Source of the DNA: a virus
IMG/VR virus record: IMGVR_UViG_3300045988_180644
Strand: one strand, 5' to 3'
DNA: 64,000 nt
The notes under the pieces were generated by a model. It worked only from the letters and a program-made list of their open reading frames with translations, made no database searches and was not told where the DNA came from. The first letter of the stretch is position 1, and each line of letters starts with the position of its first letter. The position numbers and the translations under genes were made by a program. Of the stretch, positions 1,900 to 46,314 are shown one piece after another.

Positions 1900-2112
1900 C
1901 TATTCATTTCCCATCAAAAGGACATATAATTCCTTTGATGTATCACCTTTTTCATGCATTTTCAAGGCTTCTTCAATGATGACAATACGTGTCATAATGG
2001 TAATTGTCGTACCAAAGATGAGTTCCATCTGTCTTAGGGACTTCAACTCCTCTTGAGCTTTTCTTATAGCCTCATTCCAATCTAAAGTCATGATATTTTC
2101 AGTACATTCCAT
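1900..2112 (-). CDS. hypothetical protein
   Basis: 70 aa ORF; ATG at 2112 preceded by GAAAGGAAGG RBS, directly downstream of leader cassette a. Confidence 0.55.
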   Translation of the reverse strand: MECTENIMTLDWNEAIRKAQEELKSLRQMELIFGTTITIMTRIVIIEEALKMHEKGDTSKELYVLLMGNE

Positions 2113-2132
2113 AGTTTATCCTTCCTTTCTCC

Positions 2133-2201
2133 AACAAAAAAAGACATGCGTGTTGCATGTCTCTTTGCTCGTTTATATTGTACATATATATTTTAGCATA
2201 T
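2133..2201 (-). promoter_or_regulatory. leader cassette a: conserved promoter-like block + hairpin + U-tract before RBS of 1900..2112
   Basis: minus strand TATGCTAAAATATATATGTACAATATAAACGAGCAAAG-AGACATGC/GCATGTCT-TTTTTTT. Confidence 0.6.
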
Positions 2202-2399
2202 TTGCAATAGATGAGGGGAGTATGAATGATGAACTTTTGAAATGGAGCGCTCCAACACACGATTGGAACGCAAATGAAACGCAATATATGCAAAATAGGT
2301 ATAATCTTAGGTGCTCTATACTGTTTTTTATATATTTATATATGAATATGTGTTCATATGTGGTATTAAGCAGACTATACTACAGGTATACGTAAAGCT

Positions 2400-3420
2400 A
2401 TAGTGGACATTAAGTATAGTATATATAAATATTTAGTGTAGTATTACTAAACATTAGTATAAAAAATATATAAAAAAAGTATATCTAAGATAAGATATAC
2501 CATGTTTTACTCTATTTTAGGATATAATTATCCTTAAACCAATATAAACTTTATATAAGAGATAATGGTTTTGTGGTTGTTTTTTTATTTGACCCCTGGA
2601 AGTGGATGCTATACCCCCTACAGATTAGACACTAAAAAAATAGTGCTTCTGTAGGAGGTATATAGTTGACAGACCCGTATAGCCTCAACCAGTGGTGTTA
2701 CCGCGTGAATTAAACACAACATATATTTCCTGCTCATCTGAGCTAACGTCTAACAGTCGATTGGCCTACGTTATAGAAATATATCCCTCTTGAACTCTTA
2801 TCTGTCACCAGATAATGAAAGCATTATGCCCGTTTCTCGTTCATGAAACTTATTGACTGTATCCATCCGTGGGATATTCTTTTGCATCATTAGGAGTTCC
2901 CACTTCTCCTTCAGCCTTAGCACTACGCACACCACAGCGTAGGTAACCGGCGTAGACATTTTTGCTCTCTCGAACAGTCGGCTCTACACACCGCTCAACG
3001 GTTTTCCTTTTTTCGAGTAAAACCTAACAAAAACTCTATTCCTCCTTGTTTTCTTAGAATCATGAAAAGTGGTTTTAAAAACGTATCCATGAGGTTTACC
3101 AATTCACCAGTCGCAGTCTCTTACTCCCCAACATCACTTTTCAGCTTATTTGAGGCTTATGGAAATAGGAAGGGTCGGAAAATAGATATTCAATTGTCCG
3201 TTATCATAGATTGATGCCTCTATCATAAGGTTACTGTTTCTTTTTTGAATAATCTACCCTCCGGCCACATTGCCATTATATATTAGAAACAAAAAATGAC
3301 TTCTCACGAAGCCAAGAAAGTACAAGAAATATAAGTTATAGAATTGTGTACTCTCCTTTCTTCTTCGTCTATATTATATCATATTTTCCTAAATTAGGCA
3401 ACAAATCATTTCGTTTTATC
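2400..3420. ncRNA. ORF-free, GC-elevated ~1 kb block: candidate large structured RNA
   Basis: no ORF >60 aa on either strand across ~1 kb in an otherwise gene-dense island; GC visibly higher than flanks. Confidence 0.3.
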
Positions 3421-3457
3421 CAAAATAAAAAGGGTCCTTAGACCCTCTGCTACTATA

Positions 3458-3715
3458 TTACATAGATTCGTGGAATGTACGAGAAATAACATCATCTTGT
3501 TGTTCTTTTGTTAATTTAACAAAGTTAACAGCATATCCAGAAACACGAATAGTTAATTGAGGATATTTTTCAGGATGTTTTTGAGCATCAATTAATGTAT
3601 CTCTGTTTAAAACATTAACATTTAAATGATGTCCTCCTTTTGTAGCATAAGCATCTAACATTCCAACTAAATTTTCAACTTGTTGTTCACTTGCAAGCAT
3701 ATTAAGCACCTCCAT
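3458..3715 (-). CDS. grcA: autonomous glycyl radical cofactor (GrcA/YfiD-like, PFL C-terminal glycyl-radical domain)
   Basis: [55 protein letters not shown] is near-identical to GrcA/pyruvate formate-lyase C-terminus, including the RVSGY glycyl radical motif; no PFL N-terminal body upstream. Confidence 0.85.
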
Positions 3716-3771
3716 AGATTTTACTATTGTAGTATATCATATACTACAAAGAAAGAAGATTGATATGCTCA

Positions 3772-4443
3772 TCAATCTTCTCGTATAGCTTTCTCAGTTT
3801 CAATATCTTCCAAAATCCTTTCCACAATCTTTTCAGCTACTTTCTCAGGTTCTTGGTCTCCATCTATAGTTTCTCTAATCTTCTTACCATCAACATCAGT
3901 AAAATAAAGAGCATCGTAACTCTTCTGAATTTCCCTATGGAATGAGATATCCATCTCATCGAACTTGTTAGTATTACGGTGGTTTTTGGCGATTCTTTCA
4001 AGTCCAACTGACACATCAGAGAGCTGAAGATAAAAGGTTTTAGAAAGTTCTGGTGGGAAGATGAATCCAAACAAATCCTTCATAACTTCTTCAACCCACT
4101 CTCCTTTTGCTATTGAATATCTATATCCCTGATAGACAAGCGTACTATCCACATATCTATCACAAAGCACAATATAGCCTTTTTCAAGATAAGGTTTGAT
4201 AGATTTTTGATAGTTTTCATTTCTTATAGATAACATCAACAATAATTCCGTCGTTTTATCTATATCGCTATATTGGGGATTGAATATGATATTTCTGATA
4301 TCTTCACAGACTTCAAGCCCTCCCGGTTCACGGATGATGACGGATGGTATGTTGAGGATGTCTAGGTGTTGTTTAACAAGCTGGATAGCTGTACTTTTCC
4401 CACATCCTTCTGTTCCTTCTAATGCGTAAATTCTTCCTTTCAT
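3772..4443 (-). CDS. tmk: thymidylate kinase
   Basis: P-loop YALEGTEGCGKST, DR(Y) motif; start moved to internal ATG (MKGRIYALEG) with GGAGG RBS; tracker start at 4482 lies inside leader cassette. Confidence 0.85.
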   Translation of the reverse strand: MKGRIYALEGTEGCGKSTAIQLVKQHLDILNIPSVIIREPGGLEVCEDIRNIIFNPQYSDIDKTTELLLMLSIRNENYQKSIKPYLEKGYIVLCDRYVDSTLVYQGYRYSIAKGEWVEEVMKDLFGFIFPPELSKTFYLQLSDVSVGLERIAKNHRNTNKFDEMDISFHREIQKSYDALYFTDVDGKKIRETIDGDQEPEKVAEKIVERILEDIETEKAIRED

Positions 4444-8320: not shown

Positions 8321-8340
8321 TTTTCTCTCCTTTCTCCTAA

Positions 8341-8404
8341 ACAAAAAAGGTACGCCATGCGTACCTATCTCTCGTTTATGTTTTACATTATTATTTTACC
8401 ATAA
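8341..8404 (-). promoter_or_regulatory. leader cassette c (before 7868..8320)
   Basis: TATGGTAAAATAATAATGTAAAACATAAACGAGAGATA + GGTACGC/GCGTACC + T6. Confidence 0.6.
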
Positions 8405-8412
8405 TTTACTCT

Positions 8413-9051
8413 TTAATTCTCATTTGGTATAACGATAGATTGAATATTTCCTCCTACAACTCTAAATCTTTCGTCATATAGTTGATTTTCATAGTCAATT
8501 TCCTTTTTTACAGATTCCTTACATTTCTTTAAACCTTCTTTTAATCCTATAAACATATCATTGTACTCAAAATATTCTCTGGCATGATATTTATGTTCCT
8601 CTTCTCCCAGAAAAATAATATCTAACTCAAAAGGTTTTAAATTGTTTATGTAATGACCTCTGGCATGGAGAATATCTATGACAACAACATAATTATCTAT
8701 AACAAAAACTGTTGTATTATCCTTTTCTTCTCTATCACAAGTTATTTGCAACTTTTCAATATATTTTTCGACTATTTCTGACAACTTTTCAATATTGTTT
8801 ACATCCTTAAATAATCCTTTTATATAATCCCATATATCATAAAGCTGGTTATTATCATCATAGATTTGGTTAATTCCTGTACTAGCCACAACAAGCTTAT
8901 CATTAATTTTATATATCTTTTGGTAATTCCCATCTTTCAGTTCTCTGTTTGAGTATGTGCTATAAGAATCGGAGCATATAATAATTCCATTTTTATTTTT
9001 CAATATAACCATATAAGACATAAAATTTCTTCTCCTTTTTACTTTTTTCAT
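8413..9051 (-). CDS. HslV/proteasome-beta-like Ntn hydrolase paralog A (Ser instead of Thr at the nucleophile position)
   Basis: MSYMVILKNKNGIIICSDSYS...KLVVASTG aligns by eye to HslV N-terminus TTIVSVRRNGHVVIAGDG...KVIAGFAG; paralogous to 11803..12399; alternative start at 9021 (MSYM). Confidence 0.55.
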   Translation of the reverse strand: MKKVKRRRNFMSYMVILKNKNGIIICSDSYSTYSNRELKDGNYQKIYKINDKLVVASTGINQIYDDNNQLYDIWDYIKGLFKDVNNIEKLSEIVEKYIEKLQITCDREEKDNTTVFVIDNYVVVIDILHARGHYINNLKPFELDIIFLGEEEHKYHAREYFEYNDMFIGLKEGLKKCKESVKKEIDYENQLYDERFRVVGGNIQSIVIPNEN

Positions 9052-11560: not shown

Positions 11561-11727
11561 TTTCGTTTTCCTCCTTCAAAAATCTCATACAATCCTCATA
11601 TTCATCTTTTATAAAATTTTGTAATTCTTTGTATTTCTCTTTTAATTCCTTGATTGATTTACATTTAGCAAATTCTTCATAAATCCATATTTTCGTCTCC
11701 TCATACATTTTTTTACTCCTTTCTACG

Positions 11728-11790
11728 AAAAAAAGAGAGACACATTTGTCTCTCTCATCGTTTAATATTTACATATTCATTATAGCATAA
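11728..11790 (-). promoter_or_regulatory. leader cassette d (before small ORF + 10919..11560)
   Basis: TTATGCTATAATGAATATGTAAATATTAAACGATGAG + AGAGACA/TGTCTCT + T7; duplicated with cassette e. Confidence 0.6.
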
Positions 11791-11802
11791 GACAGGGTAC
11801 TG

Positions 11803-12399
11803 TTAGTCAAAAGGTATAACTAAACACTGCACTTTTCCACCTATTGTTCTTTGACCTTCTATATGCAAAGCGTTTTCTGTCATGATGGCATATTCTACTG
11901 ACTCAATGCATCTCTTTTGGGCTTCCTTTAACGATACATTTATTTCTGTATTTCTAAATTGCATAAGCCCATTGACAGCTATAAGTTCATCTCCAGAACA
12001 AAAAATATCGACATCTCCTTTCCTTTTAACGGTTATTGCTGTTGTCTTTGAATGAATAATATCTATAACATATAAAGTATCTTTATAGACAATAATCAAA
12101 CGAATATCCTGTACATATCTATCACAAAATCTTTTAATATAAGATATATATCTGTTGATTTGTTCTTCAATACTATCAAAATTCATGAAATATTCTTTAT
12201 AAGTTTCATTGATATCAATCGCTTTCCCTGTATACTCATCAATAAATCCATTCAATCCAGTGCTTGCAATAACAACATCACCAATCTGATGAATTTTTTT
12301 ATAATTTGAATCTTTAAGTGTCCTGTCTCCATAACAGCTATATGAATCAGAAGCAATGACAATTCCTTCTTTTGTCATATAAGTAATCATGTATGACAT
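11803..12399 (-). CDS. HslV/proteasome-beta-like Ntn hydrolase paralog B (Ser at the nucleophile position)
   Basis: MSYMITYMTKEGIVIASDSYSCYGDRTLKDSNYKKIHQIGDVVIASTG matches HslV N-terminal pattern (x.VVIAxD...K.N.KK...D.VIA..G); RBS AAAGGAG. Confidence 0.55.
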   Translation of the reverse strand: MSYMITYMTKEGIVIASDSYSCYGDRTLKDSNYKKIHQIGDVVIASTGLNGFIDEYTGKAIDINETYKEYFMNFDSIEEQINRYISYIKRFCDRYVQDIRLIIVYKDTLYVIDIIHSKTTAITVKRKGDVDIFCSGDELIAVNGLMQFRNTEINVSLKEAQKRCIESVEYAIMTENALHIEGQRTIGGKVQCLVIPFD

Positions 12400-14720: not shown

Positions 14721-14796
14721 TTTGTTATCCTCCTTATTGAATTTATTTTGTTTTGAAATATAGTTTATTTTCTTCTGTTTTAATCTCCTTTCTACG

Positions 14797-14859
14797 AAAA
14801 AAAAGAGAGACGAATTTGCCTCTCATATCGTTTATATTTACATATTTATTATAGCATAG
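14797..14859 (-). promoter_or_regulatory. leader cassette e (before 13428..14720)
   Basis: near-duplicate of cassette d incl. CGTAGAAAGGAG; stem weakened (GAGAG/CTCTC). Confidence 0.55.
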
Positions 14860-14879
14860 AAATTCATAAATAAAACACA

Positions 14880-15872
14880 TTATTCCGTGTCGTCATATTC
14901 AACATAAACATCATATTGTGATACAACTCCTGTATATTCATCTTTTAAATCCATTGAAAACATCGGAAATTCCGTTTGTCCTGGTGTTGCATTTGGTCCA
15001 TCGATATTGACCTTTACCCATCCTTTAGGACATGCATTTTCAACTTCATCAACAAATTTTCTTAGACTAGTTCGACTGCGTGATGAAAACCCTAACTCAT
15101 CTGTGTTATCTGTTTTTAATTTCACATGAGCCCATTTTTCTAGAAATTCATCAAGTGAATCACAACCATCAAGTATATCCCTCACTTTTTTAGTTACTCT
15201 TAGATATTCACAACCATCTATATGTTTGCATTTAGTTGTTAGGATAGTACGTGGAACATCTCTTAGAACAATACTAATGCCTCCTAAAAACAGGTACTCC
15301 GTTCCAGATTTTTCTTTGTAGATTCTCCCTGGCTTTAAGTCTGATTGCTTGATATACGTAGACCTCGTTTTGATATCCTGTATTTTAAGGCTTCTATTAA
15401 GAAGTGGATAGAGTTTTCTTACACCTGAAACAATGGTTATGGCTAAACGGGCACGATGTTCATCAACTTTTTCATTCATATCCATAAATTCATACCATGG
15501 ATTAATACCATAAGGAACAATAACTAATGCGATTCTCCTTCCTGTTATATATTCTCCAGAACTATCTGTCTCACAGTATGAAATTCCATTATCATAAATA
15601 TAAATACGTCTAGCCTTTTGAAATGTACCGTCTTTTTTCAATGGAATCAAATCAAAAAGATTAGGTACTTTTTCCTGATTCATAATCATGTTTGCTATTT
15701 TTACTAATTCGTAAATTTTACGATAATAATCTTCACCAGTTATATTGGTATCGGGTAATTTACTTTTTCCACAGACGTCTTTTATTTTTTTAGCATGTTC
15801 TAAATAATGATTGAAATTCTCTTCATCATAAAATATTGATAAACCTGCACCATAGATTTCCTTTTTTGCCAT
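14880..15872 (-). CDS. hypothetical protein, short paralog (330 aa) of 13428..14720
   Basis: aligns with residues ~100-430 of neighbour; VPNLFDLIPLKKDGTFQKARRIYIYDNG. Confidence 0.65.
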   Translation of the reverse strand: MAKKEIYGAGLSIFYDEENFNHYLEHAKKIKDVCGKSKLPDTNITGEDYYRKIYELVKIANMIMNQEKVPNLFDLIPLKKDGTFQKARRIYIYDNGISYCETDSSGEYITGRRIALVIVPYGINPWYEFMDMNEKVDEHRARLAITIVSGVRKLYPLLNRSLKIQDIKTRSTYIKQSDLKPGRIYKEKSGTEYLFLGGISIVLRDVPRTILTTKCKHIDGCEYLRVTKKVRDILDGCDSLDEFLEKWAHVKLKTDNTDELGFSSRSRTSLRKFVDEVENACPKGWVKVNIDGPNATPGQTEFPMFSMDLKDEYTGVVSQYDVYVEYDDTE

Positions 15873-15890: not shown

Positions 15891-16499
15891 CTAAAATCCA
15901 TATAAAATCACATCTTCATTTTCCCAATCCGTATGGTTATATAAATTAATAATCTGAAGAATTGTATATTCCGTAGATATGTTGATATTGTATGGAATTT
16001 CTAATTTATCTTTGTTTGTTCGTTTTGAAAATGACTTAAAAGCATCCATATTAAGACTATCATCTTGTTTCCATAAATTTGCTTTTCGATGGAAATATTC
16101 CTGTGCAAATATAGGCCCACATTCATCTTCAAAATCTTTTAACATGTCAGTATAATATTTATACATGCTTTTATAGATTGCATCGAGATACAACAGAATC
16201 ATTTCCTTAGTCAGTTTTACAATTCTTTCACCATCAATATCCCTTTCACCTTCATAAGGAATATTGACTAAATGACTCTGTTCTTTAGAAAGATATGATT
16301 TCCCCTGTTTACGTATTGTTTCAGCGTCATCATCACTTCCTAAAGGCATCACTTCTTGAAATCCTAAATGCTTGACAACATCGTATTGTGTAAGTTCATC
16401 TGGATTCTCTTTAAACACATCAATGAGTTCTTTTAGCTTTGCATCAATGTCTTGAGAGCATAGCTTTTTTCTTTTACAAATATACAAACGATAGCTCAA
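15891..16499 (-). CDS. hypothetical protein
   Basis: TTG start (LSYRLYICKRKK) 8 nt after GGAGG; tracker start 16541 overlaps leader cassette. Confidence 0.55.
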   Translation of the reverse strand: MSYRLYICKRKKLCSQDIDAKLKELIDVFKENPDELTQYDVVKHLGFQEVMPLGSDDDAETIRKQGKSYLSKEQSHLVNIPYEGERDIDGERIVKLTKEMILLYLDAIYKSMYKYYTDMLKDFEDECGPIFAQEYFHRKANLWKQDDSLNMDAFKSFSKRTNKDKLEIPYNINISTEYTILQIINLYNHTDWENEDVILYGF

Positions 16500-16518
16500 T
16501 TTATTTCCTCCTTTCAAA

Positions 16519-16578
16519 CAAAAAAGACATGCATAAAGCACGTCTCGTCTCGTTTAATATTTACATTTCTATTATACC
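16519..16578 (-). promoter_or_regulatory. leader cassette f (before 15891..16499)
   Basis: TGGTATAATAGAAATGTAAATATTAAACGAGACGAG + ACGTGC/GCATGTCT + T6. Confidence 0.6.
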
Positions 16579-16596
16579 ACATTATACTCTGCAATC

Positions 16597-16830
16597 TTAC
16601 AACAATCCTAGCATTTGTGCCATGGCTCTACCAAAGATTGATTTCATCTCTTCATTGTTCATTATGCTGGATTTTTTAGCGACATATAATCCACCCCATA
16701 GCATCGCAGCTTTCTGTTCAAGAGACAAATCTTTTTTCTCTGATAGGATTAGGTTTTCCAAATCATAATATGCTACATCTGATGACATGTCCTTGATGTG
16801 TTTTTCTTTTTCCATAAGCTTATCCTCCAT
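16597..16830 (-). CDS. hypothetical protein
   Basis: 77 aa ORF. Confidence 0.5.
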   Translation of the reverse strand: MEDKLMEKEKHIKDMSSDVAYYDLENLILSEKKDLSLEQKAAMLWGGLYVAKKSSIMNNEEMKSIFGRAMAQMLGLL

Positions 16831-19122: not shown

Positions 19123-19338
19123 TTACAACTTCTCATGCCCATTTTCTTCAACAGATACCTTAATTCCTGCTTCTTCTAATGCTGATAACAGTGTTTCAGG
19201 TGACTGTTTTGCCTTTTTCATAATTTTTGTGACCTTTAAAAGTTTCTTTCTCTTGATTCCATCAGTATGAATGATGAAAGTCTTTCCATCATGTTCAAAT
19301 AAGATATCATTACCTCTTCTTTCGTATTTTTTGTCCAT
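19123..19338 (-). CDS. hypothetical protein (first gene of an operon)
   Basis: start ATG (MDKKYERRGN) with GGAAAGGAGG RBS just downstream of leader cassette g. Confidence 0.55.
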   Translation of the reverse strand: MDKKYERRGNDILFEHDGKTFIIHTDGIKRKKLLKVTKIMKKAKQSPETLLSALEEAGIKVSVEENGHEKL

Positions 19339-19355
19339 AAATAACCTCCTTTCCA

Positions 19356-19420
19356 ACAAAAAAGACATGCCAAAGCACGTCTCAATTTCGTTTATAATTA
19401 CATATTTATTTTATCATATA
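19356..19420 (-). promoter_or_regulatory. leader cassette g (before 19123..19338; sits in a divergent intergenic region)
   Basis: TATATGATAAAATAAATATGTAATTATAAACGAAATTGAG + ACGTGC/GCATGTCT + T6; no upstream minus-strand gene to terminate. Confidence 0.65.
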
Positions 19421-19557
19421 TGTGTTTTGTTAAGAAAAAAGTATCCTGATGATGCAGACAGGATACTCCAAAAATATCTCACCAATGAGACAATCTTAGT
19501 TTATTCTATATTACATAAAATTTCAACTCATTCTTATATATAAATTTAAAAAGTTAT

Positions 19558-23076: not shown

Positions 23077-24402
23077 CTAATATTTCGTAATATTCTTTTC
23101 CAAGTCAATGATAAACACTGTGTTGCTGTCAATAGCCTGCATAACTTTCTTCATCTGAGAAGTCGGAATTGCTACACATCCTCCTGTATAATGGATACTA
23201 TTAGCACAATGCAGGAAAAAAGCAAAGCCTTTTCCTTTTACATTAGATGTATTATAGCTGAAGGCTGCAGCATACTTATATTGAGTAGGATAATCAATTA
23301 AATGCTCATCATTTTTTTTACTGCAAGAATGTTCTGTTACATCCTCATCTACAAATTGATTGTATAATGTTTCTCCACACCAGTAATCATTGTTATCAAT
23401 TCTATGATACGGAAGCTGAGTACCAGGATTTGATGATATTCCCATTAATTTTGTAAAAGTATATTGTCCAATAGGCGTTCTCGTACTGTTTTCACTTCCT
23501 GTTCCTACTCCAGCCTTACCAAAATCAGCTGTTGTCTCTAGAACTTCTTTCCATTTTCCATTCACTTTCTGATAATAAGTAAATGTTCCTTGTCTTGATG
23601 AACTTGATGGAGCTGATGCAATCATAATTTTTGAATAGCTTTTAGCAACATCTAATTTAGAAACCCATAAATCATTTGACGATGCGCTGGATGAACCAGA
23701 TGTTCCAGTTGATGTTCCGGTATTCTTATTTGAAGTGCTTGAAGAATTGCTACTTGCTGTTTTGTTACTCGTAGAACTCCCCTTCTGTGATGAGCTTGAG
23801 TTGTTTGTCTTGTTTGATGATTGACTTGTAGTGCTTCCCTTTGAAGAACTCTTAGAAGTAGTATTCTTTGATGCCGTTATAGCTTTTTCTTTGACTGTCA
23901 AATCAATTTCCTTTTGAGCCTTGTTCTGATATTCATCAGTAGCTGTGACCTTCACCTTATAATTTCCTGATTTTGTATAGTCAATTTGAGCATCTTCTAC
24001 TGTAATGGTTACATCAGATAAATCTGTTGCTGTAAATTTCTTTTTATCAATCTTTTCACCATTATCAACAGTGACCTTTGTTATTCCATCGGTAAAGGTT
24101 GGAGCCTTTGTGTCTTCAACTTTTATTGTCACTTCCTGATTCGTATTTCCGTGACTAATCTTTAATGTATACTCCCCAACGGCAGGGTATTCTTTACCTT
24201 CTTCATTTTCTGGAATCCCTGTCATTGTTGAATTTTTCATATATTCATCACTGTTTTCTAGATACGTTTTTAAATCCGAAGAAACGATTTCTCCATATTC
24301 TACTGTTAATTCTTTATTCTTTAATTTCATTTGTTCCTGCTGGCATCCACTAATCATTAATGACACTAACAGTACCAAAAAAACTTGTAAACATTTTCTC
24401 AT
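23077..24402 (-). CDS. lipoprotein with Ig-like domains, S/T-rich linker and C-terminal L,D-transpeptidase (YkuD-like) domain
   Basis: lipobox LMISGC; LHCANSIHYTGGCVAIP matches LD-transpeptidase catalytic motif; start moved to ATG (MRKCLQV) with GGAGG RBS. Confidence 0.65.
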   Translation of the reverse strand: MRKCLQVFLVLLVSLMISGCQQEQMKLKNKELTVEYGEIVSSDLKTYLENSDEYMKNSTMTGIPENEEGKEYPAVGEYTLKISHGNTNQEVTIKVEDTKAPTFTDGITKVTVDNGEKIDKKKFTATDLSDVTITVEDAQIDYTKSGNYKVKVTATDEYQNKAQKEIDLTVKEKAITASKNTTSKSSSKGSTTSQSSNKTNNSSSSQKGSSTSNKTASSNSSSTSNKNTGTSTGTSGSSSASSNDLWVSKLDVAKSYSKIMIASAPSSSSRQGTFTYYQKVNGKWKEVLETTADFGKAGVGTGSENSTRTPIGQYTFTKLMGISSNPGTQLPYHRIDNNDYWCGETLYNQFVDEDVTEHSCSKKNDEHLIDYPTQYKYAAAFSYNTSNVKGKGFAFFLHCANSIHYTGGCVAIPTSQMKKVMQAIDSNTVFIIDLEKNITKY

Positions 24403-24417
24403 TTTATTCCTCCTTAC

Positions 24418-24486
24418 AACAAAAAAAAGATGTGTAGCTTTGTACACATCTCCTTCGTATATATTTACATGATTATTTTATCATAA
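24418..24486 (-). promoter_or_regulatory. leader cassette i (before LD-transpeptidase lipoprotein)
   Basis: TATGATAAAATAATCATGTAAATATATACGAAGGAG + ATGTGTACA/TGTACACATCT + T8. Confidence 0.6.
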
Positions 24487-24506
24487 GTTAACATTCTATG
24501 GAAAAT

Positions 24507-26321
24507 CTACGCCTTGTCTACTTCCAATACATTGTATCTTGGTCCAACCCCATTAAAATCAGTATATCCGACTTCAATCAGATAATTGACATTGGCCTTT
24601 TTATCCTTCTTTCTTTGATATGTTTCGGCACGGATTTCTCTAGCTTCATTTTCTGTGACATTATCTCTTTCCATGATTCGCTGAACATTATCACTCATTG
24701 TAAATGACTCTTCATTACAAATCGGTTTTACATTTTTTAATCCTCCAAACAACCACAATTCCAAAGCTGGGAAGGATTTCTTTCCATGGTCAAAGACCAT
24801 TTCATATTGCGTCATCTTAGCGTGATTAGACTTGTAATAGAGGTCAATTCTTGATACATTGAAACTCATTTTTGCTATAGGCAAAGGTAATCCATTTCCA
24901 AATGGCTTCAATTTCTTAATCTCTTCTACAAAAGCCAATCTTTCCTTGCGATTATGGATTTGAACATAAGTCTTTTCAATAACCTTACCTTGTTCTTGCT
25001 TTTCCACACTCTCGCAAAACTCTTGTTTAAACTCTTCCAAATTTTCATCCAGCACGGTCAACCCTGCTGCATCGGCATGTCCTCCATATGCATATAACAA
25101 ATGTTTTCTGTCATCAATGTCCTGAAGAGTATCATACAAGTTGATAAGCGAGTTGCCTCTTGCTGAACCTTTCCAGGCTTTTTGACCATCCACCATACAG
25201 TCTGTCATGACTAGAGTTGTCTTATTATTTTCATTCATGTAAGCACCAGCCAAAATCCCAATAATTCCCTCATGGATTCCTTCTTGAGCAATAAAATTGA
25301 CTGATGTTGATTCATCAAGATGGATTCCTTCCATAGTCTGTTTTTTGATGTCCTTTCTTTCTTCATTTAAAAAGACAATAAATGAACAGGCTCTTCTGGC
25401 ATCTTCTTTATTATCAGTTGTTAAGAAATCAACTGCCAACTTAGCATCATGTAAACGTCCAACAGCATTGATGGCCGGCGCAATGGAAAATCCAATGGAC
25501 TGCTCATCAAATGTTTCCTGATTCACTTCCTGATAATCCATAAGCATTTTAAGATGCCAGTCGGGCTCAGTCTGGATAGACTTGATTCCATCCTTTAACC
25601 ATTTTCTATTCTCATTGACCTGAGATAAAGCATCATCTGCTGATGCAATAGGCATGACGTCTGAAACAATGGTCAAAGCTGAAAGCTGTAATAGGTATTT
25701 TCGAAGATTGTCTTTTTTCTTCTTTAACGCCTTGCTATTATCCAATAATAAGCTTGCAACCTTATATGCAACCTGTGCTCCACTGATGTATGGGAATGGA
25801 TATGCTCCAATTTGAGGATGCACGATGAGATTGGCATTTGGCAAGACTGATGATGGTGTATGATGGTCGGTAACGTATACGTACAATCCTTTCTCTCTTG
25901 CATAGTCAATAACCTCATGACAGGCAATTCCATTATCACAGGTTAAGATGGCCTTGATATTATCATCTAAAGCCTTATCTATCATCTCCTTGCATAATCC
26001 ATATCCATTTCTGATACGATGAGGGATATCATAATCCACTCTGGCATGAATGAATGTTAAAGCAAGGTATAAGATAGAAGTTGCTCCTACACCATCCATA
26101 TCATAATCTCCCATAATTCTGATTTTTTCATTGTTTTTGATGTGAGTTTGAAGAGCTTCGCATAACTCTACACAATTATCCAATAACTTTGGCGAATGCA
26201 ACTCACAGGGGTTGTAGAGAGTTTGGATGGATTTTTGGGAGAATCCTAAATGTGTTAACCACTCATCCATCTGCACATTGTCTACAAGTCCGCTTGTTTT
26301 ATCTAATTCCTTCCAGTTCAT
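24507..26321 (-). CDS. recJ: single-stranded-DNA-specific exonuclease RecJ (DHH family)
   Basis: DHH motifs GDYDMDG, TCDNG, VTDHH; 604 aa. Confidence 0.8.
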   Translation of the reverse strand: MNWKELDKTSGLVDNVQMDEWLTHLGFSQKSIQTLYNPCELHSPKLLDNCVELCEALQTHIKNNEKIRIMGDYDMDGVGATSILYLALTFIHARVDYDIPHRIRNGYGLCKEMIDKALDDNIKAILTCDNGIACHEVIDYAREKGLYVYVTDHHTPSSVLPNANLIVHPQIGAYPFPYISGAQVAYKVASLLLDNSKALKKKKDNLRKYLLQLSALTIVSDVMPIASADDALSQVNENRKWLKDGIKSIQTEPDWHLKMLMDYQEVNQETFDEQSIGFSIAPAINAVGRLHDAKLAVDFLTTDNKEDARRACSFIVFLNEERKDIKKQTMEGIHLDESTSVNFIAQEGIHEGIIGILAGAYMNENNKTTLVMTDCMVDGQKAWKGSARGNSLINLYDTLQDIDDRKHLLYAYGGHADAAGLTVLDENLEEFKQEFCESVEKQEQGKVIEKTYVQIHNRKERLAFVEEIKKLKPFGNGLPLPIAKMSFNVSRIDLYYKSNHAKMTQYEMVFDHGKKSFPALELWLFGGLKNVKPICNEESFTMSDNVQRIMERDNVTENEAREIRAETYQRKKDKKANVNYLIEVGYTDFNGVGPRYNVLEVDKA

Positions 26322-29216: not shown

Positions 29217-29849
29217 CTAATGATTCTTGATATATGCTAGGTAAATGAATTCCAACATGGCTACGAGTCTTTCTGTTCTGACAGGAACTGATACTCTAGC
29301 TGTTTTACCATCTCTTGTTTCTGAAACACCAATCATCCAGTTTCCTTCACGATTTCCTGGAGTGACTGTAAATGTTCTTTGGAATGCCTTCCCTTCAAAT
29401 TCGGGTTGTTTAAATTCACTAAAGACTGCCGAAGCAAATTTCTTCTTTCCATCTCTCATGGCTTCTCTTTCTGTTGCTTCTAAATCAAAGATATAGCCTG
29501 ACGTAAAGGCCCATCTTAAATATAGTAAATTCTTAAAGTCCAAATAGTAAGGGATGAACGCCTTTTGTTTATTGGATTCGTCCAATTCGACGAAGTTCAT
29601 ATGAACCTTACAGTCCATACCAGCATCATCATCAATCAAATTAAATCCATCCTGTAAAACTTCTAAGAATACATCTCCGCCTGTTTTTCTTTGAGCATAT
29701 ACTTTATCAATTTTCTTAGCATATTCTTTCTTCACTTCTTTTTCTTTGACTTCAGTTTTAACTTCTGAATTCATAGTTTTAGGAGTATATGTTTTCATTT
29801 CTACTCCCTTGTTTTCTTTATTTGCTTTTGCTTTGTCTTTTAATCCCAT
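29217..29849 (-). CDS. hypothetical protein
   Basis: 210 aa ORF, AAAGGAGG RBS after leader cassette j. Confidence 0.6.
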   Translation of the reverse strand: MGLKDKAKANKENKGVEMKTYTPKTMNSEVKTEVKEKEVKKEYAKKIDKVYAQRKTGGDVFLEVLQDGFNLIDDDAGMDCKVHMNFVELDESNKQKAFIPYYLDFKNLLYLRWAFTSGYIFDLEATEREAMRDGKKKFASAVFSEFKQPEFEGKAFQRTFTVTPGNREGNWMIGVSETRDGKTARVSVPVRTERLVAMLEFIYLAYIKNH

Positions 29850-29865
29850 AGTTTTCCTCCTTTAA

Positions 29866-29934
29866 ACAAAAAAGACACACCTTATGTGCGTCTTTTCTTT
29901 CGTATATGATTTACATATATATTTTATCATATAT
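29866..29934 (-). promoter_or_regulatory. leader cassette j (before 29217..29849)
   Basis: TATATGATAAAATATATATGTAAATCATATACGAAAGAAAAG + ACGCAC/GTGTGTCT + T6. Confidence 0.6.
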
Positions 29935-29959
29935 TTCAGTTATGTGTTTATGTTTTATA

Positions 29960-29981
29960 AAAAAGAACTCAGGTTCATATG
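29960..29981. repeat. perfect 22-bp palindrome CTCAGGTTCATATGAACCTGAG (parS-like) just downstream of parB
   Basis: exact inverted repeat; 6 further copies of core GGTTCATATGAAC in 32.3-34.5 kb. Confidence 0.7.
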
Positions 29982-29991
29982 AACCTGAGAA

Positions 29992-31014
29992 TTATTTTAA
30001 ACTTTGTCTTAGTTTTTTTATATCAGCCTCTAAGGATAGTAAATAATTTTTAAATTCCTTTTTTTCATCATTATCAGCAAAGATGATTTTATCAGGTGTT
30101 AAATTTGTAGTTATTGTCTTAAATGTTCTCACTTTTTTTATGATTTCATTGCCAGTGTAATTTTTATCCTTATTCCCTTCAATTTCCATTTGTAAATCAA
30201 AAAGATATTTTGAGAATCCTTTTCTATCCATTTTGCTAAGAGCCTTCATGACTCTATCTTGTTCTGCATCAGTTAGCGAAGATATTAAATAAGCTTGATT
30301 AAAATTAATGAGTTCTTTTCTGAAGTATTCCTTAATGAGAGTATTATGTGCAAAGTATATTGCGTTAACTTTTTTGGCTTTTGCTAGTGAATATGAAAAA
30401 CCAAATCTTTTCATTTTATTAACAACATATTCAGCTTTATTAACTACACCTTCAAGTTTTGTGTAAACTCCATTTTCATATCCAAAAATATAGTCGTAAT
30501 GTATCATGAGCTTTTCAGCACTTAAGTTTCTAGACAGAAGGTTTGTATCATGATATACCTTTTCTATTTCCTTTTGTGTTGCCCCGCGTGGTACTACAAT
30601 GGCTGGTATCTTCGAAAACTTTCTTCTCTTGGCTTCATTTCTTTCTTCAATAGCTCTTTTATATAGATTATGAACAGCTCTAAATCTCTGAGACCCAGCT
30701 CTTATCTCGTATTTTCCCGTTTCATTTCCTTCTTCATCTACTTCTCTTATGACATTGATTGGCTGTAACACCCCTACTAACCAAATAGATTCCTGAAACT
30801 CCTCCATTTCTTCTGGGGTCTTATTTGGATATTCATTCTTTTTATTATCAACAATTTTATCTAAGGGGATGTATTGCATCTCATATTCTTCAAGTTCATC
30901 TAAAGTTTTTTTATCATTAGCTTCAAATGGTGTTTCAAATGAGTTCCCAAAAAAATCAATTGATTCAACTGGCTCCATGTCACCAACACTTAAACTTCTT
31001 TTATTCCTTGCCAT
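29992..31014 (-). CDS. parB: ParB/Spo0J-like partition protein
   Basis: LQPINVIRE...YEIRAGSQRFRAV resembles ParB N-terminal box; downstream of parA; perfect palindrome parS-like site just 3' of it. Confidence 0.65.
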   Translation of the reverse strand: MARNKRSLSVGDMEPVESIDFFGNSFETPFEANDKKTLDELEEYEMQYIPLDKIVDNKKNEYPNKTPEEMEEFQESIWLVGVLQPINVIREVDEEGNETGKYEIRAGSQRFRAVHNLYKRAIEERNEAKRRKFSKIPAIVVPRGATQKEIEKVYHDTNLLSRNLSAEKLMIHYDYIFGYENGVYTKLEGVVNKAEYVVNKMKRFGFSYSLAKAKKVNAIYFAHNTLIKEYFRKELINFNQAYLISSLTDAEQDRVMKALSKMDRKGFSKYLFDLQMEIEGNKDKNYTGNEIIKKVRTFKTITTNLTPDKIIFADNDEKKEFKNYLLSLEADIKKLRQSLK

Positions 31015-31017: not shown

Positions 31018-32160
31018 CTATGCCTCCTTTTTCCCTTGCAAGAGCTTTGACACATATTCATCAACCATTAATAATTCTTCGGTAGATAAACCATCCATTT
31101 TATCTTCTACATGTCTCTGAGCTCTAATTCTTTCAGCCGCTTTTTGATTTTCCTCTGTTCTCTTATTAGCACTTACTATTCCTGCTAATAAATCCATTTC
31201 ATACTCAATTTTTTCTGCATCAAAATATTCTTTAACAAAATTTATGATACTTGTTCTATAATCATCTTTAACTTGTGAAGCTAAATAATCCCAAGTATTT
31301 GAATCAACAACTAATTGTTTATCTACAATTTTAGTATCAAAAACTTTAATACCTGCTACATCAGAAATACTATTATTAATTTCTTCAAGGACTATTCTAT
31401 CGTTACTTCTTACTCTTTTATATTTATTACATAAAATACCTTTAATCTCAAAATCTGGTATATACTTCTTTACACTTTCTACATTTCTTAAAACGGTATT
31501 TATTCCTTCAGCTGAATTCATATCCATAAAGGTAGGAATAATTAATTCTCTAGACGCAGCAATTCCATTAAGCGATAATACTCCTAAAGATGGAGGGCAG
31601 TCTATAAAGATAAAGTCATAATCGAAATACTCTTCAATTTGTTTTACAACTAATTGCAACATGATACGATTGTACTTTTTCCCTTCATCTGTTAGTATAT
31701 AATGTCTTTCTACATGATTGTCAGGAGTTTGACTCATAAAGGCTAGTTCAATAAAAGATGTATCTTGTCCGACTCCAGGAATGATATCACATCCAAAAGG
31801 AATATCATTATATATCCACTTCATTCCATTTCTTTCAGCTTTTGTATATGTTGGAGTTCTTTTTGAATTGCTTATATATTGTATAGGAGGTAACTTTCCC
31901 CATCTTTCGAAATAAGACACAAGATATGCCATCGTTGGAATTCCATGTTCTTTCCCAAATTCCAATGCACCCATTCGATTCGTGTTAATATTAAACATAC
32001 TCGTTAAAGAGTTCTGAGGGTCCCAATCTATCAGGAGAACCTTCTTATGAAAAACTGTCCCCATAATATTAGCAATATTTGCTGTCAATGTCGTTTTACC
32101 TATTCCACCTTTATTATTATAAATGAGTATGACATGTGTTTTATTTTTATTTGTTGACAT
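31018..32160 (-). CDS. parA: ParA/Soj-family partition ATPase (long C-terminal extension)
   Basis: deviant Walker A NNKGGIGKTT; start set to ATG (MSTNKNKTHVIL) with AAAGGAG RBS rather than tracker start 32292. Confidence 0.8.
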   Translation of the reverse strand: MSTNKNKTHVILIYNNKGGIGKTTLTANIANIMGTVFHKKVLLIDWDPQNSLTSMFNINTNRMGALEFGKEHGIPTMAYLVSYFERWGKLPPIQYISNSKRTPTYTKAERNGMKWIYNDIPFGCDIIPGVGQDTSFIELAFMSQTPDNHVERHYILTDEGKKYNRIMLQLVVKQIEEYFDYDFIFIDCPPSLGVLSLNGIAASRELIIPTFMDMNSAEGINTVLRNVESVKKYIPDFEIKGILCNKYKRVRSNDRIVLEEINNSISDVAGIKVFDTKIVDKQLVVDSNTWDYLASQVKDDYRTSIINFVKEYFDAEKIEYEMDLLAGIVSANKRTEENQKAAERIRAQRHVEDKMDGLSTEELLMVDEYVSKLLQGKKEA

Positions 32161-32308
32161 CCTGATTCTCCTTTCATATTCACACTTTATTATATTAAAA
32201 TTATATATTTTTTTCAACTTGTATTTACATTCCCTTGAATTTGTGCGTATCGTTTTCGCGGCCCCAAAATCTTTTGATTTTGCCAGGTTCACTTTTCATT
32301 TTAGATAA

Positions 32309-32326
32309 AGTTCATATGAACCTGGT
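32309..32326. repeat. parS-like palindrome copy
   Basis: AAGTTCATATGAACCTGG. Confidence 0.6.
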
Positions 32327-32540
32327 CATCATGTCATGTATCTTAAAAATATGACTTTTAGATTTCTTTAATAAATTTAAGATATTTTTTAAAAACATAG
32401 CAATTTCTTAAATACGACTGACTTATGACAATTGTTTCTAACAAATTTATAAAAGACCTTATTGTTGGTATATAAAACTCTTAACCTTCTTCTCAATACT
32501 TTGTTTTCTATATAAACTCTATCATTAAACTTAATATCTT

Positions 32541-32558
32541 TTGAGTTCATATGAACCT
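32541..32558. repeat. parS-like palindrome copy
   Basis: TGAGTTCATATGAACCTC. Confidence 0.6.
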
Positions 32559-33218
32559 CTATACAAACTCATCATATTCTTTTATCTAATGATATGAATT
32601 GTGATTGACTTTTAAAGGACTTCTTCCTTATGTCATATAAATTATAACTTTATATTCTAAGATAATTTTTTCTTGTTTTATAAGGTTTTTTGATAGGTTT
32701 TTTATAGTATTTTGAGTCCATCATGTTTTTATTGTTTTTTAATAGAATTTTTCTCATTTCTATTTAGTTTTCTATAATTATCTATCAGAGTCCCACTCCT
32801 ACAATCCCCACCAAACTCTCTCCATCATCCTACAACCACCTCATGTATTTGGATAGGTTATTAATAGGATTTTTATAATTTATCAGACATATCAAGTCCC
32901 CTATTCAAAATCTATCCTCTTCCTTACACTCTCGCTTTCATTTCATATACTCATACCTTACTTTCCACCCACCTCCCTCAAATTAATCCATTATCAGAGC
33001 ATAACAAAAATTAGTGGTTTATAGATAGATTGTTAATAGGATTGTAAATAGAATCGAGTCATATGTTGTTCATGAGTAAGACAGGATTCAATTCTATCCA
33101 TCCCCTATTCACTTCCATTAAAACTCAAGCATAACTTTAGTTAATAGGACAGTATTACTTTAAGTTCTTAATAGATAATTGATAGAATCAATATTACACT
33201 TCTATAAAAGTTATGACT

Positions 33219-33236
33219 GAGGTTCATATGAACTTC
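33219..33236. repeat. parS-like palindrome copy
   Basis: GAGGTTCATATGAACTTC. Confidence 0.6.
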
Positions 33237-33525
33237 AAGCTTATATATTAAAAAAAGTATAGACGTACTATTAACAATCTATCCACAATCATAAACTAAA
33301 GCTATACTTGAGAATAGAAGCAAGATAGAATATTAATAGAATTGTATAAAACGAATCATAGATAAGTTTCCTGATGTCTTTTGTGAATATAACAATCCTA
33401 TTCAAAATCTATCATAACTCAAACTTATTTCATAATACTGAAATTAGATTTGTGAGAGGATTTACAATAGAAATGTGTATCCTTTCAAACTCTTCCAACA
33501 TCTAAATAAACACTTTTATATATTC

Positions 33526-33542
33526 GGGTTCATATGAACTTC
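33526..33542. repeat. parS-like palindrome copy
   Basis: GGGTTCATATGAACTTC. Confidence 0.6.
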
Positions 33543-33760
33543 TATATAGATTTGCAAGAGCTATGTCTATATTTTGATTTTAGAAAGATATATTTAGATT
33601 CCTATGATGAATAGATGCTCGATAGAAGCTAAAGTATAACTTGAGTCGTTGTAAAATTCTATCAACAACCTTTCATAAATCAATTCATGTAAACGAAGAA
33701 AAAATTTGAAGAGTTAATAATGGGGTTTTGATAGAGGGTTAATAGGATTTATTTATATAT

Positions 33761-33777
33761 AGGTTCATATGAACTTC
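33761..33777. repeat. parS-like palindrome copy
   Basis: AGGTTCATATGAACTTC. Confidence 0.6.
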
Positions 33778-34456
33778 ATGAATTAAAAAGCACAGAATAC
33801 TAATTTATATCTAATCACTCTATCAATAACCTATCAAAGCTCCATTCATAAGAGTAAAAATACTTTCTACTTAAATAAAGTATAACTTAAGTTATAAAAA
33901 AAATCTATCAATAATCTTTCAATCAACCTTCATATTATTTTTGTGTAAGATGAGCTTAGAACAGGTGGAGGATTTAGATAGATGATGGATAATGTTAGTG
34001 ACATAAATAAATCATTTCTATTTCAATAAAGAAAATCCTATCAACTCTCTATCAAAATTCCTTCAATCTCAATTCATATAAACTATAGCTTGAGTTATAA
34101 AAAGAACAACTCCTCATAAATTCCATTCATCTCCATTCTGAATATAAAAATCTTATTGCATAGAAATAGTTTCAATAGAAGATAAAAAGAATATGAGAAG
34201 ATTATATGTAATAGGTACAATATTATCAAATACCAATGTGACACAATCCAAACTCTTATCAAAACAAAAAAAGGATAACGATATTATATGAATGAGATTA
34301 TGATAGGAGTAGGAAGGTGATAAAACGAATCATAATACATCATCAAAACTCTATCAAAAAGCCTAATGATATTGAGTTGTAAAAGTTTGGATGATGATAG
34401 ACTTTAGATGGGATTGAATGGGTTAAATAAATGGGAGGGTTTGGAAAGAATGTGGG

Positions 34457-34476
34457 GAGGTTCATATGAACCTGAG
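34457..34476. repeat. parS-like palindrome copy
   Basis: GAGGTTCATATGAACCTGAG. Confidence 0.6.
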
Positions 34477-34798
34477 AATAGGATAATAAGGGATATAGAT
34501 AGACTTGTATTGGAAAAACATTAAAAAAATACGATAAATCGCATATTTATCAAGAAAATAGTATTTTTAAGGAAAAAGAGGGAAAACCAATTAAAAACTA
34601 TCAAAAACCCAATAAGAAATAGGATAAAACTTAAAGTTATTATTCTTATTGTCTAAGGAAGAAGTCCTCTTAAAGTCAGCCCAATCATTTTATTTCACTC
34701 ATCCCATAATATGATACAATAGTAATGTAAATTAATACGAATAGAGACATGTAGCACTATACATGTCTCTTTTTTTATGAACTAAAAGGAGGATTAAA

Positions 34799-36169: not shown

Positions 36170-36312
36170 AATTTACCTATTATCTTGCTAAATAAACATG
36201 ATTAACTTTCACACATCAAAGAAAATATATGATATACTTTATGTGTAAATATTATACGAGAAGAGATTCATGTAGCTATGAATCTCTTTTTTATTTGAAG
36301 GAGGAAAATTTA

Positions 36313-36939
36313 ATGCCAAGTTTAAAAGGTAGAGCAAAAGCTAAAACAGAATCACAAGAAACAAAAGGAACTAAAACAGTAGAAGTAAGAATGAGAAAAG
36401 TAGAATTTGAAAAGAATCCATCACTTAAAGCATTCTTTAATGCAACAGTAACGGGTTATCCTGTATCTACAAAAGTAACATTTACTGAAAAAGAAGATGG
36501 TGACGATTCTATTTATGGAATTCTATTCCAATCTCAAAAAGGTAAAGATGGTAAATATTATGACCATATTCATCCTATTGACAAAGAAACAAGAACAGTC
36601 ATTGTCAATAACTTGTTATCAGCTTTTACAAAGTTTTTTGAAGGAGACGAAGATGTCACTATTGATGAAAATGATGTAAAGGTATCACAAGTTGTAGAAA
36701 AAGGCAACTTTAAAGGTCAGCTTGGAGACGCTATTATTGAAACATCAAGACCTATGGCTCTTCAAAATTTAGAATTACATCAAAGTAAAGATGGTAATTA
36801 CTATTTAGCATATCCAGGTCGTAATTATAAAAATTCTAATGGTGAGTGGCAAAAAATGCCATATTACTGGCCACAAAAAGACAGTGATACAACACAAGCT
36901 ATCTTAGAGGCTGCCATCAAAGAATATGAAAAGGCTTAA
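36313..36939 (+). CDS. hypothetical protein (possible DNA-binding/recombination accessory)
   Basis: start at ATG (MPSLKGRAK) after GAAGGAGG RBS; K-rich N-terminus. Confidence 0.55.
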   Translation: MPSLKGRAKAKTESQETKGTKTVEVRMRKVEFEKNPSLKAFFNATVTGYPVSTKVTFTEKEDGDDSIYGILFQSQKGKDGKYYDHIHPIDKETRTVIVNNLLSAFTKFFEGDEDVTIDENDVKVSQVVEKGNFKGQLGDAIIETSRPMALQNLELHQSKDGNYYLAYPGRNYKNSNGEWQKMPYYWPQKDSDTTQAILEAAIKEYEKA

Positions 36940-45820: not shown

Positions 45821-45903
45821 GTCCTCGTGATGGAACAGGTAGACATGCATGGCTTAGACCCATGTGCTTATGCGTAAGGGTTCGAATCCCTTCGAGGACA
45901 CCA
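45821..45903 (+). tRNA. tRNA-Leu (anticodon TAG), class II long variable arm
   Basis: hand-folded cloverleaf: acceptor GTCCTCG/CGAGGAC, anticodon stem CATGG/CCATG loop CTTAGAC, GGTTCGAATCC T-arm, CCA encoded. Confidence 0.7.
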
Positions 45904-45947
45904 ATATCACTCCAATGCTTGTAAAGAGTGAATATATGAAATTATAT

Positions 45948-46020
45948 GAACATCTAGCATAATGGAAATGCGTAGGGTTCAGCGCCCTTCATGATACTGG
46001 TTCAAGTCCAGTGGTGTTCA
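45948..46020 (+). tRNA. atypical tRNA-like gene (anticodon loop TTCAGCG; no encoded CCA)
   Basis: acceptor GAACATC/GATGTTC, D-arm TAGCATAATGGAAATGC, T-arm ACTGG-TTCAAGT-CCAGT; paralog of 46396..46468. Confidence 0.45.
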
Positions 46021-46070
46021 AATGCCAGATAAGAAATAAAGCTAAAACAGGGATAATCATATCCCTACAT

Positions 46071-46208: not shown

Positions 46209-46236
46209 AATATACATTTTTTGTGACAAACAATAT

Positions 46237-46313
46237 TGGTGAGTAGCGTAGTTGGTTAGCGCAATCGGCTGTTAACCGATGGGTCGTGGGTTCAAGTCCC
46301 ACCTCGCCAGCCA
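46237..46313 (+). tRNA. tRNA-Asn (GTT)
   Basis: acceptor TGGTGAG/CTCGCCA, anticodon stem ATCGG/CCGAT loop CTGTTAA, CCA encoded. Confidence 0.7.
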
Positions 46314-46314
46314 T

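Follow-up and report, generated by a model that had tools for sequence, protein, structure and literature searches.

A gap without called genes near the start of a 64,000-nt stretch of viral DNA (IMG/VR virus record IMGVR_UViG_3300045988_180644; 'the window' below means this whole stretch) appears to contain an independent gene that encodes a structured non-coding RNA of ~900 nt. The putative gene runs from 3401 to 2471 on the minus strand and would be carried by a phage-like element of ~256 kb from Massilimicrobiota (Erysipelotrichaceae); judging from comparisons among its sequenced relatives, we give this reading a probability of about 0.7. A sequence-only reading had flagged positions 2400-3420, nearly the same span as the unit delimited here (2471-3401), as a block that might encode a large structured RNA. 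That idea is strengthened by a promoter and a terminator, by conservation, by the pattern of insertions and deletions (indels) and by covariation in eight helices, whereas the known families that had been proposed for it gave no match.

The gap is flanked by a 70-aa open reading frame (ORF; 1900-2112) and by grcA (3458-3715), both on the minus strand, which holds every neighbouring gene from 1 to 32.3 kb. A terminator scan placed the intrinsic terminator of grcA at 3429-3448 on the same strand (an 8-bp stem followed by TTATTTTGGA), outside the RNA gene; it is identical in every copy that has grcA. Next comes the predicted promoter of the RNA gene (3373-3401, minus strand), of the form TTGCCT-17-TG-n-TATAAT with an extended -10, which scores highest of the promoter matches in the region (10/12 plus the TG motif) and is kept in 11 sequences. 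The string AATTTAGGAAAATATGATATAAT is invariant save for a single G-to-A substitution, in L044 and L051, and the -35 hexamer varies. This promoter, TATGATATAAT, is of the same extended -10 type as those of eight cassettes elsewhere in the window; the RNA gene has a leader of its own, without a Shine-Dalgarno (SD) sequence or start codon. We infer that transcription starts near 3366. The transcript would then comprise, all on the minus strand, a 5' leader domain folding as a three-way junction of helices P0, P1 and T1 (3287-3370), a GC-rich core of ~700 nt with ~25 predicted helices (2590-3286) and an AT-rich 3' tail (2471-2589) ending in terminator T2, with a hairpin at 2501-2493/2486-2478 and a U-run at 2477-2471. 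An AT-rich spacer with no strand assigned (2205-2470), probably outside the RNA, extends to the promoter cassette of the next unit (leader cassette a; 2113-2204, minus strand), which consists of an extended -10, ATGTAAATATAAACGA, a hairpin with a U-run, an SD sequence and the start of the 70-aa ORF. The locus thus has what is generally expected of a structured non-coding RNA gene: promoter and terminator, no conserved ORF, conservation and compensatory changes.

In base composition, 200-nt intervals across 2600-3100 have a GC content of 0.395-0.47, compared with 0.326 for the whole window. Elevated GC had been claimed for all of 2400-3420; the GC-rich portion is, however, limited to about 2590-3290, with 3200-3420 at about 0.31 and 2300-2600 very AT-rich (GC 0.22). 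The absence of any ORF longer than 60 aa on either strand was borne out, the longest within 2113-3457 being 53 aa (2798-2959, minus strand). The short inverted repeats quoted in the sequence-only reading exist and sit inside helices of our model: GGGCATAATGC is the hairpin 2831-2819 and CCGGCGTAGAC the 3' arm of helix 2997-2983/2956-2944.

Twelve distinct copies of the block were recovered, representing about five lineages; the useful relatives came from exact-protein look-ups of GrcA, Tmk homologues and the 70-aa ORF. Over the shared region, loci L001-5 and L017 are ~95% and L019-21 ~90% identical to the window, and grcA is present in both groups; L018 (~84%), L044 and L051 lack grcA. The RNA unit stands beside grcA in the window, L001, L019, L041-43 and L045-47, and without it in L018, L044 and L051. 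Homology to L018 begins exactly at the -35 hexamer (3401), right behind tmk. In the L001 lineage it stops at 2134, so that the block is retained and followed by unrelated genes, and in L023, where tmk and grcA are present, it is lost at 3414 and the block is apparently absent. To judge from these arrangements, the RNA unit moves independently of grcA, as one module. The GrcA protein of the element is 95-98% identical to bacterial GrcA encoded in pyruvate formate-lyase (PFL) operons (L039 and L040); this identity, together with the absence of grcA from three lineages, suggests that grcA is likely a recent host-gene capture between tmk and the RNA gene.

Conservation of the block was compared with that of its neighbours. 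Relative to L019, the core at 3288-2840 is 99% identical (4 mismatches in 449 nt) and the leader 100%, against 84.5% for tmk, 95.0% for grcA and 73% for the 70-aa ORF. Relative to L018, the core is 88-90% identical (95% over 3075-2840, with a 19-nt insertion left out), the leader 81.7%, tmk 81% and the 70-aa ORF 72.5%. Two independent comparisons, with L019 and with L018, therefore place the non-coding core above its coding neighbours in conservation. The other parts of the region differ between the two relatives: the variable segment (2839-2664) is 74.5% identical to L019 and 87% to L018, the tail as far as T2 100% and 65%, and the spacer 86% and 44% (aligned), the spacer being 86-89% identical to L019 and L001 with 1-nt indels. 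One allele of the variable segment is found in the window, L018, L044 and L051 and another in L001, L019 and L041; mosaic recombination of this segment among lineages is evident from the alignment.

Secondary structure was predicted using RNAalifold on five and then on 11 sequences, giving about 250 pairs; in the 11-sequence alignment 98.6% of cells pair. In the body of the RNA, nine pairs (17 cells) show two-sided changes that keep the pairing, compared with 3.3±1.2 pairs and 4.2±1.7 cells in shuffles, none of the 500 attaining the observed values, and with 0-2 pairs in slid controls. Three further pairs in P1 and one in helix 3092/3060 bring the total to 13 in eight helices, namely P1, 3092/3060, 2997-2983/2956-2944, 2831-2819, 2815-2798, 2786-2775/2731-2719, 2718-2704 and T2; a comparative alignment had been suggested in the sequence-only reading as a check for covariation, and this is what it revealed. 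A scan independent of folding energy detected perfectly covarying columns with a 6-pair stack only within predicted helices. GNRA tetraloops are found on four hairpins: GAAA at 3142-3139, GAGA at 2971-2968, GUGA or GUAA at 2808-2805 and GUGA in T1.

All helices described here are read on the minus strand. In the leader, the alignment fold pairs a 5' purine run (3370-3361) with a U-run (3296-3287) as P0, enclosing P1 (3357-3347/3324-3314), a long hairpin with a loop that varies from 22 to about 60 nt, and T1 (3313-3308/3303-3298, with the GUGA loop). This layout is common to the folds of all four leader types, and the individual fold of the window has P1 and T1 only. Pairing in P1 is kept in L044 and L051 through A-U to G-C, C-G to U-A and A-U to C-G changes, and in T1 through G.U to A-U. 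A pairing of the 5' ACGAAG with the 5' arm of T1, seen in the window fold and considered as an antiterminator, was dropped because it is not conserved in the other leader types. Helix 3092-3086/3066-3060 (3060-3092) closes a terminal loop of variable length, the site of the 19-nt insertion in L018, and shows C-G to U-A in L051, and U-A to U.G and G.U to G-C in L018. In helix 2997-2983/2956-2944 (2944-2997), which surrounds the GAGA-capped hairpin 2976-2972/2967-2963, pair 2986/2953 changes from U-A to C-G in L018 and L051, and none of the 11 sequences has a broken cell.

Two adjacent covarying hairpins follow at 2798-2831. The first (2831-2828/2822-2819) shows a G-C to A-U change; the second (2815-2809/2804-2798), which is GNRA-capped, reads UUAUCUG-GUGA-CAGAUAA in the window, UUACUUG-GUAA-CAAGUAA in L019 and UUACUUG-GUGA-CAGGUAA in L018, and thus has two two-sided pairs with the states UC/GA, CU/AG and CU/GG. 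The variable domain (2704-2786) comprises helix 2786-2775/2731-2719, within which lie hairpin 2774-2763/2755-2743 and a small hairpin that is present or absent by copy, and then hairpin 2718-2715/2708-2704; pair 2777/2728 changes from U-A to C-G in 4 of the 11 sequences, and pair 2718/2704 is U.G, A-U or U-A. A long 3' hairpin at 2610-2664 (inverted repeat I7; 2664-2648/2624-2610 and 2646-2641/2634-2629) varies solely by C-to-U changes opposite G, which give wobble pairs when read on the minus strand and C.A mismatches when read on the plus strand. In T2, pairing is kept in L018 through G-C to A-U, U-A to C-G and A-U to U.G changes. The consensus energy is -217.9 kcal/mol for the minus strand and -173.5 for the plus strand, one-sided changes compatible with wobble pairing number 17 and 6, and broken cells 23 and 34, respectively. 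The minus strand is favoured; the 11-sequence alignment, the promoter and both terminators agree on this.

Several results weigh against an independent gene for one large RNA, or limit what the alignment can say for it. The folding energy of the block is no better than that of dinucleotide shuffles (z of -0.31 and -0.92 for 300-nt pieces, 200 shuffles), and a coding control from tmk scored better (z -1.93); an initial z of about -4 for both strands (791 nt) rested on 20 shuffles only and was not upheld, so we do not count folding energy as support. In one sequence or more, about 30 of the predicted pairs fail to form, partly through misalignment and partly in helices of the AT-rich tail. The core is for the most part invariant, so that it says little about structure, covariation supports no long-range helix, so that an ornate global fold is no more than a possibility, and the agreement between structure and alignment is inflated because the one was predicted from the other. 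Mosaic recombination between the two alleles of 2839-2664 could contribute to the high identity, and T1 could terminate most transcripts. Diversity is also shallow (12 distinct copies in about five lineages), and searches of INPHARED, IMG/VR, GTDB and JGI yielded no homologue outside the element. Specifically, blastn against INPHARED found no relative, nor did searches of IMG/VR with tmk, a 168-aa ORF, three DNA strings and a profile of the Tmk clade; the GTDB genome scan returned one near-identical contig of a metagenome-assembled genome (MAG), and the JGI scan only the window's own contig (OBYM01000043.1) plus chance 20-mer matches. GrcA homologues pointed to bacterial PFL operons or relaxase contexts, and two Tmk relatives (~60% identity; L025 and L026) have no block within ±10 kb.

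Some of these points fit an arrangement of several small elements, in which an RNA of ~80 nt ends at T1 and is followed by small RNAs or regulatory hairpins. T1 (3313-3298) is a good, conserved terminator-like hairpin in the terminator scan, lies only ~70 nt past the predicted start and is followed by UUUUUUGUUU; the covariation concerns local hairpins, with no helix closing a domain, and the folding energy of the core is unremarkable. We nevertheless consider this arrangement improbable, since no second conserved promoter is found within the block, the stretch 3288-2590 is conserved and mobile as one piece, and for all leader types the folds, whether individual or based on the alignment, pair the U-run with the 5' purine run. 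Moreover, hairpins similar to T1 follow eight promoters of the window and are evidently read through. These promoters belong to eight intergenic cassettes on the minus strand, recognized from repeat matches and an alignment of the eight copies, at 2113-2204, ~8335-8475, ~11715-11855, ~14790-14930, ~16485-16625, ~19320-19460, ~24350-24520 and ~29830-29970. Each has an extended -10 (TATGnTAaAAT), the conserved string ATGTAAATATAAACGA, a hairpin, a U-run, and an SD sequence with start codon; the hairpin arms differ in sequence among cassettes and are always complementary. Because the genes downstream need to be expressed, hairpins with U-runs must evidently be passed by RNA polymerase in this element, and their position behind many operon promoters suggests control of an antitermination type or of RNA stability. 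In lambda, PR'-qut-tR' combines a promoter with a proximal terminator under antitermination and yields the short 6S transcript. The leader studied here is similar in having a strong promoter and a hairpin with a U-run within ~70 nt, a layout that is repeated before eight operons; the likeness concerns the leader (T1) only, not the 700-nt core, and neither an antiterminator protein nor a Q-binding element was identified in the element.

A cis-acting role in replication or packaging, for instance as an origin where a priming transcript of the ColE1 or T4 type is made beside an AT-rich unwinding region, would account for a strong promoter that reads through a GC-rich structured stretch into AT-rich DNA (GC 0.22 at 2300-2600) and for the G-runs near the 3' hairpin. 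It seems very unlikely to us, as a conserved terminator stands ahead of the AT-rich spacer, which is the least conserved part of the region (44% relative to L018), neither iterons nor direct repeats turned up in the block, and L023 apparently lacks the block. More usual settings for an origin are found at 30-35 kb, where gene orientation switches and an AT-rich gap of 2.5 kb lies with ParA/ParB-like genes, and at 43 kb, where there is a DnaD-like loader. The gap in question, at 32293-34798, is a 2.5-kb AT-rich (GC 0.27) region free of ORFs at the switch from minus- to plus-strand genes; it adjoins the ParA-like (31018-32292) and ParB-like (29992-31014) genes, has weak short tandem repeats only and is a candidate for an origin or partition region or for another non-coding feature.

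There is equally little to recommend a very long leader that regulates the downstream operon (from the 70-aa ORF onward) with T1 and T2 as attenuators. The block has the same orientation as those genes, and terminator-like hairpins of this element appear to be leaky or regulated; the operon, however, has its own promoter cassette (2204-2113), a poorly conserved 260-nt spacer separates it from the block, the downstream genes of the L001 lineage are entirely different, and the variable P1 loop offers no evident conserved ligand pocket. Least of all do the data suit a decayed or recoded protein gene (a pseudogene, or one read with a suppressor tRNA), which we practically dismiss despite a tRNA with anticodon UUA reported by ARAGORN in the window and an open stretch of 97 codons on the plus strand (2921-3211), since every frame is dense with stops, has no similarity to known proteins and is disrupted by indels, no gene is called in the block, and a pseudogene would not exceed functional neighbours in conservation.

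The figures behind this dismissal are as follows. The number of stops per frame is 19-26 over 2396-3457 and 20-31 over 2113-3457, and read-through of any single stop opens at most 131 codons. All three stop codons are used among the long ORFs of the window, and nothing there hints at genome-wide recoding. Translated in six frames with its stops masked, the block had zero matches to Pfam and PHROG families at E<=1, and gene callers left the gap empty on more than 20 independent contigs. Indels of 19, 11, 5, 2 and, several times, 1 nt separate the relatives and, in the alignments, disrupt the 53-aa minus-strand ORF, the 97-codon stretch and the small ORFs located behind SD-like motifs, as 1-nt indels do a 101-aa plus-strand ORF (2090-2395) just outside the block; they are incompatible with any reading frame. 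In the structural model, the indels keep to loops and junctions: the 19-nt insertion of L018 falls in a terminal loop, and an insertion of 11 nt and a deletion of 5 nt are placed in a junction or peripheral hairpin. The sequence-only reading had held that the lack of a covariance-model match, combined with an alignment to a frameshifted pseudogene, would speak against a structured RNA; the former is what we observed, and the latter was not found in any of six frames (Pfam and PHROG, E<=1). A role as a ribosome sponge through SD-like motifs was also dropped, the best motif, AAGGAGG at 3029-3023, reading AAGCCGG in L051.

Turning to known RNAs, cmscan with Rfam 15 at the gathering score detected tRNAs only in the whole window, and at E<=10 returned noise only on 2000-3800, on 2560-3300 and on the divergent copy in L018 (10650-11950), with no family common to the copies. 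The families put forward earlier (GOLLD, ROOL, group I and II introns, RNase P and transfer-messenger RNA (tmRNA)) therefore found no match in two divergent copies, and Rfam models, with ARAGORN for tmRNA, reported no RNase P RNA, tmRNA, 6S RNA or ribosomal RNA fragment. The block interrupts no gene and is thus not an intron: no intron family appeared at E<=10, grcA and tmk are complete, each with its own terminator, and the block starts with a promoter. A riboswitch or other cis-regulatory leader was rejected as well, because T1 is not followed by an SD sequence or start codon, the loop of P1 differs among copies in both length and sequence, and no cis-regulatory family of Rfam matched. So was a retron, diversity-generating retroelement or TnpB/IscB guide RNA: at no locus does a reverse transcriptase or nuclease gene adjoin the block, TnpB-like genes are found 2-10 kb from it in some lineages only, and the window holds no paralogue of the block. 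Overall, the RNA seems to act neither as an mRNA or intron nor as a riboswitch or guide RNA.

OLE (RF01071) is a highly conserved structured RNA of ~610 nt that works with protein partners in anaerobic Bacillota; it is chromosomal and part of a conserved operon that includes oapA among other genes. The block differs from it in having no Rfam match and in being adjoined by tmk, grcA and small ORFs without assigned function, not by oapA, oapB or oapC. GOLLD (RF01998), a stand-alone RNA of ~800 nt or more and of unknown function, occurs in phages and prophages of Bacillota and others (PMC12286853). The block is likewise large, rich in helices and a stand-alone gene, and its element too carries a large tRNA array. 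It has, however, no match to the model at E<=10, and the conserved 3' half and pseudoknots of GOLLD were not seen; GOLLD usually lies beside tRNA genes, whereas the nearest tRNA here (45821) is about 42-43 kb away. ROOL (RF03087), at ~580-660 nt, is a multi-stem RNA rich in GNRA loops from phages and prophages of the gut, the rumen and Lactobacillales; its function is unknown, and it is very abundant in one host (PMC12286853). The block again has no match to the model, its RNA would be longer and, as far as found, it is confined to one Massilimicrobiota element. By these comparisons, the predicted RNA resembles GOLLD and ROOL in kind, as a large RNA of a mobile element, and belongs to neither. 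We found no earlier description of the block in the literature and supplements covered, which for PMC8040213 included 200 of 408 supplement files. The RNA probably represents a class outside Rfam 15, that is, a new class of large RNA.

How such an RNA might work can be sketched from its predicted features. Host RNA polymerase would transcribe the gene from about 3366, and the 5' three-way junction and the 3' hairpins would cap the ends and stabilize the RNA, with the GC-rich core and its four GNRA tetraloops folding into a compact multi-domain particle. T1 may in addition gate the yield of full-length RNA, as similar hairpins before the operons of the element may do. More speculatively, the RNA could act in trans as a scaffold or decoy, binding or sequestering a partner encoded by the host or the element, or could self-assemble as ROOL and GOLLD do.

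The nature of the carrier was addressed from its gene content and distribution. The window encodes RecD/Dda-like, RecJ-like, DnaD-like and ParA/ParB-like proteins; within its 64 kb, genes for a capsid, portal or terminase were not found, nor were conjugation genes. The RecD-like helicase is ~30% identical to proteins of both phage and plasmid collections and so does not separate the two. The earlier label of a phage island is plausible; as structural genes were not found in the window, the element is possibly a phage, a phage-plasmid or a megaplasmid. Its 70-aa ORF was present in 302 index blocks, among them two contigs, of 256,509 and 256,567 bp, that come from different assemblies, and the RNA unit of this widespread element occurs in >300 gut assemblies of human and chicken origin. 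Two independent contigs (L042 and L049) of almost equal length, ~256.5 kb, suggest a complete, jumbo-sized element. The host assignment derives from the MAG contig and from the identical 70-aa protein in an NCBI assembly named Massilimicrobiota timonensis (L044, GCA_900624845.1, 128.6-kb contig).

The element has other features of note. A tRNA array of about 25 genes spans 45821-51833; the ARAGORN tRNA with anticodon UUA, which reads the UAA stop, lies at 47801-47873 and has no Rfam tRNA match at the gathering score, and a 135-nt Rfam tRNA match at 46071-46205, possibly with an insert, is not listed by ARAGORN. Among the cargo unusual for a phage-like element are SPFH/Band-7 flotillin-like (487 aa), SpoVG-domain and YkuD L,D-transpeptidase-domain proteins (54502-55965, 36229-36939 and 23077-24447, respectively). 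Relatives encode a small protein with a Cas_VVA1548 domain (Pfam, E 9.5e-17), which we take to be Csx16-like and associated with type III CRISPR, in L001 (2327-2665), L018 (18414-18707) and L041-L050; its gene directly follows the RNA gene in one lineage and is about 6.5 kb off in others, and no CRISPR array was seen nearby. An IS200/IS605-type TnpA (Y1 transposase) with a 488-aa TnpB-like gene, or OrfB_IS605 alone, occurs in L001 (4182-6050), L050 (9725-11601) and L018 (20017-20660). These insertions, a few kb away in some lineages, show ongoing mobile-element traffic near the RNA gene.

We tentatively suggest, at somewhat less than even odds, that the block founds a new class of giant (~0.9 kb) trans-acting RNAs. 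Such an RNA might be made early by a jumbo phage or phage-plasmid of ~256 kb in gut Erysipelotrichaceae and have its own multi-domain tertiary fold, self-assembling into a particle of RNA alone in the manner of ROOL and GOLLD, or sequestering a host factor while the host is taken over. Few bacterial or phage RNAs longer than 500 nt and of unknown function are known (GOLLD, ROOL, OLE and some others), each of them structurally remarkable (PMC12286853). A further, unrelated class would, if true, widen this small set, and the very simple signature used in the sequence-only reading, raised GC and a lack of ORFs within an AT-rich mobile element, would serve to find RNA genes that Rfam misses.

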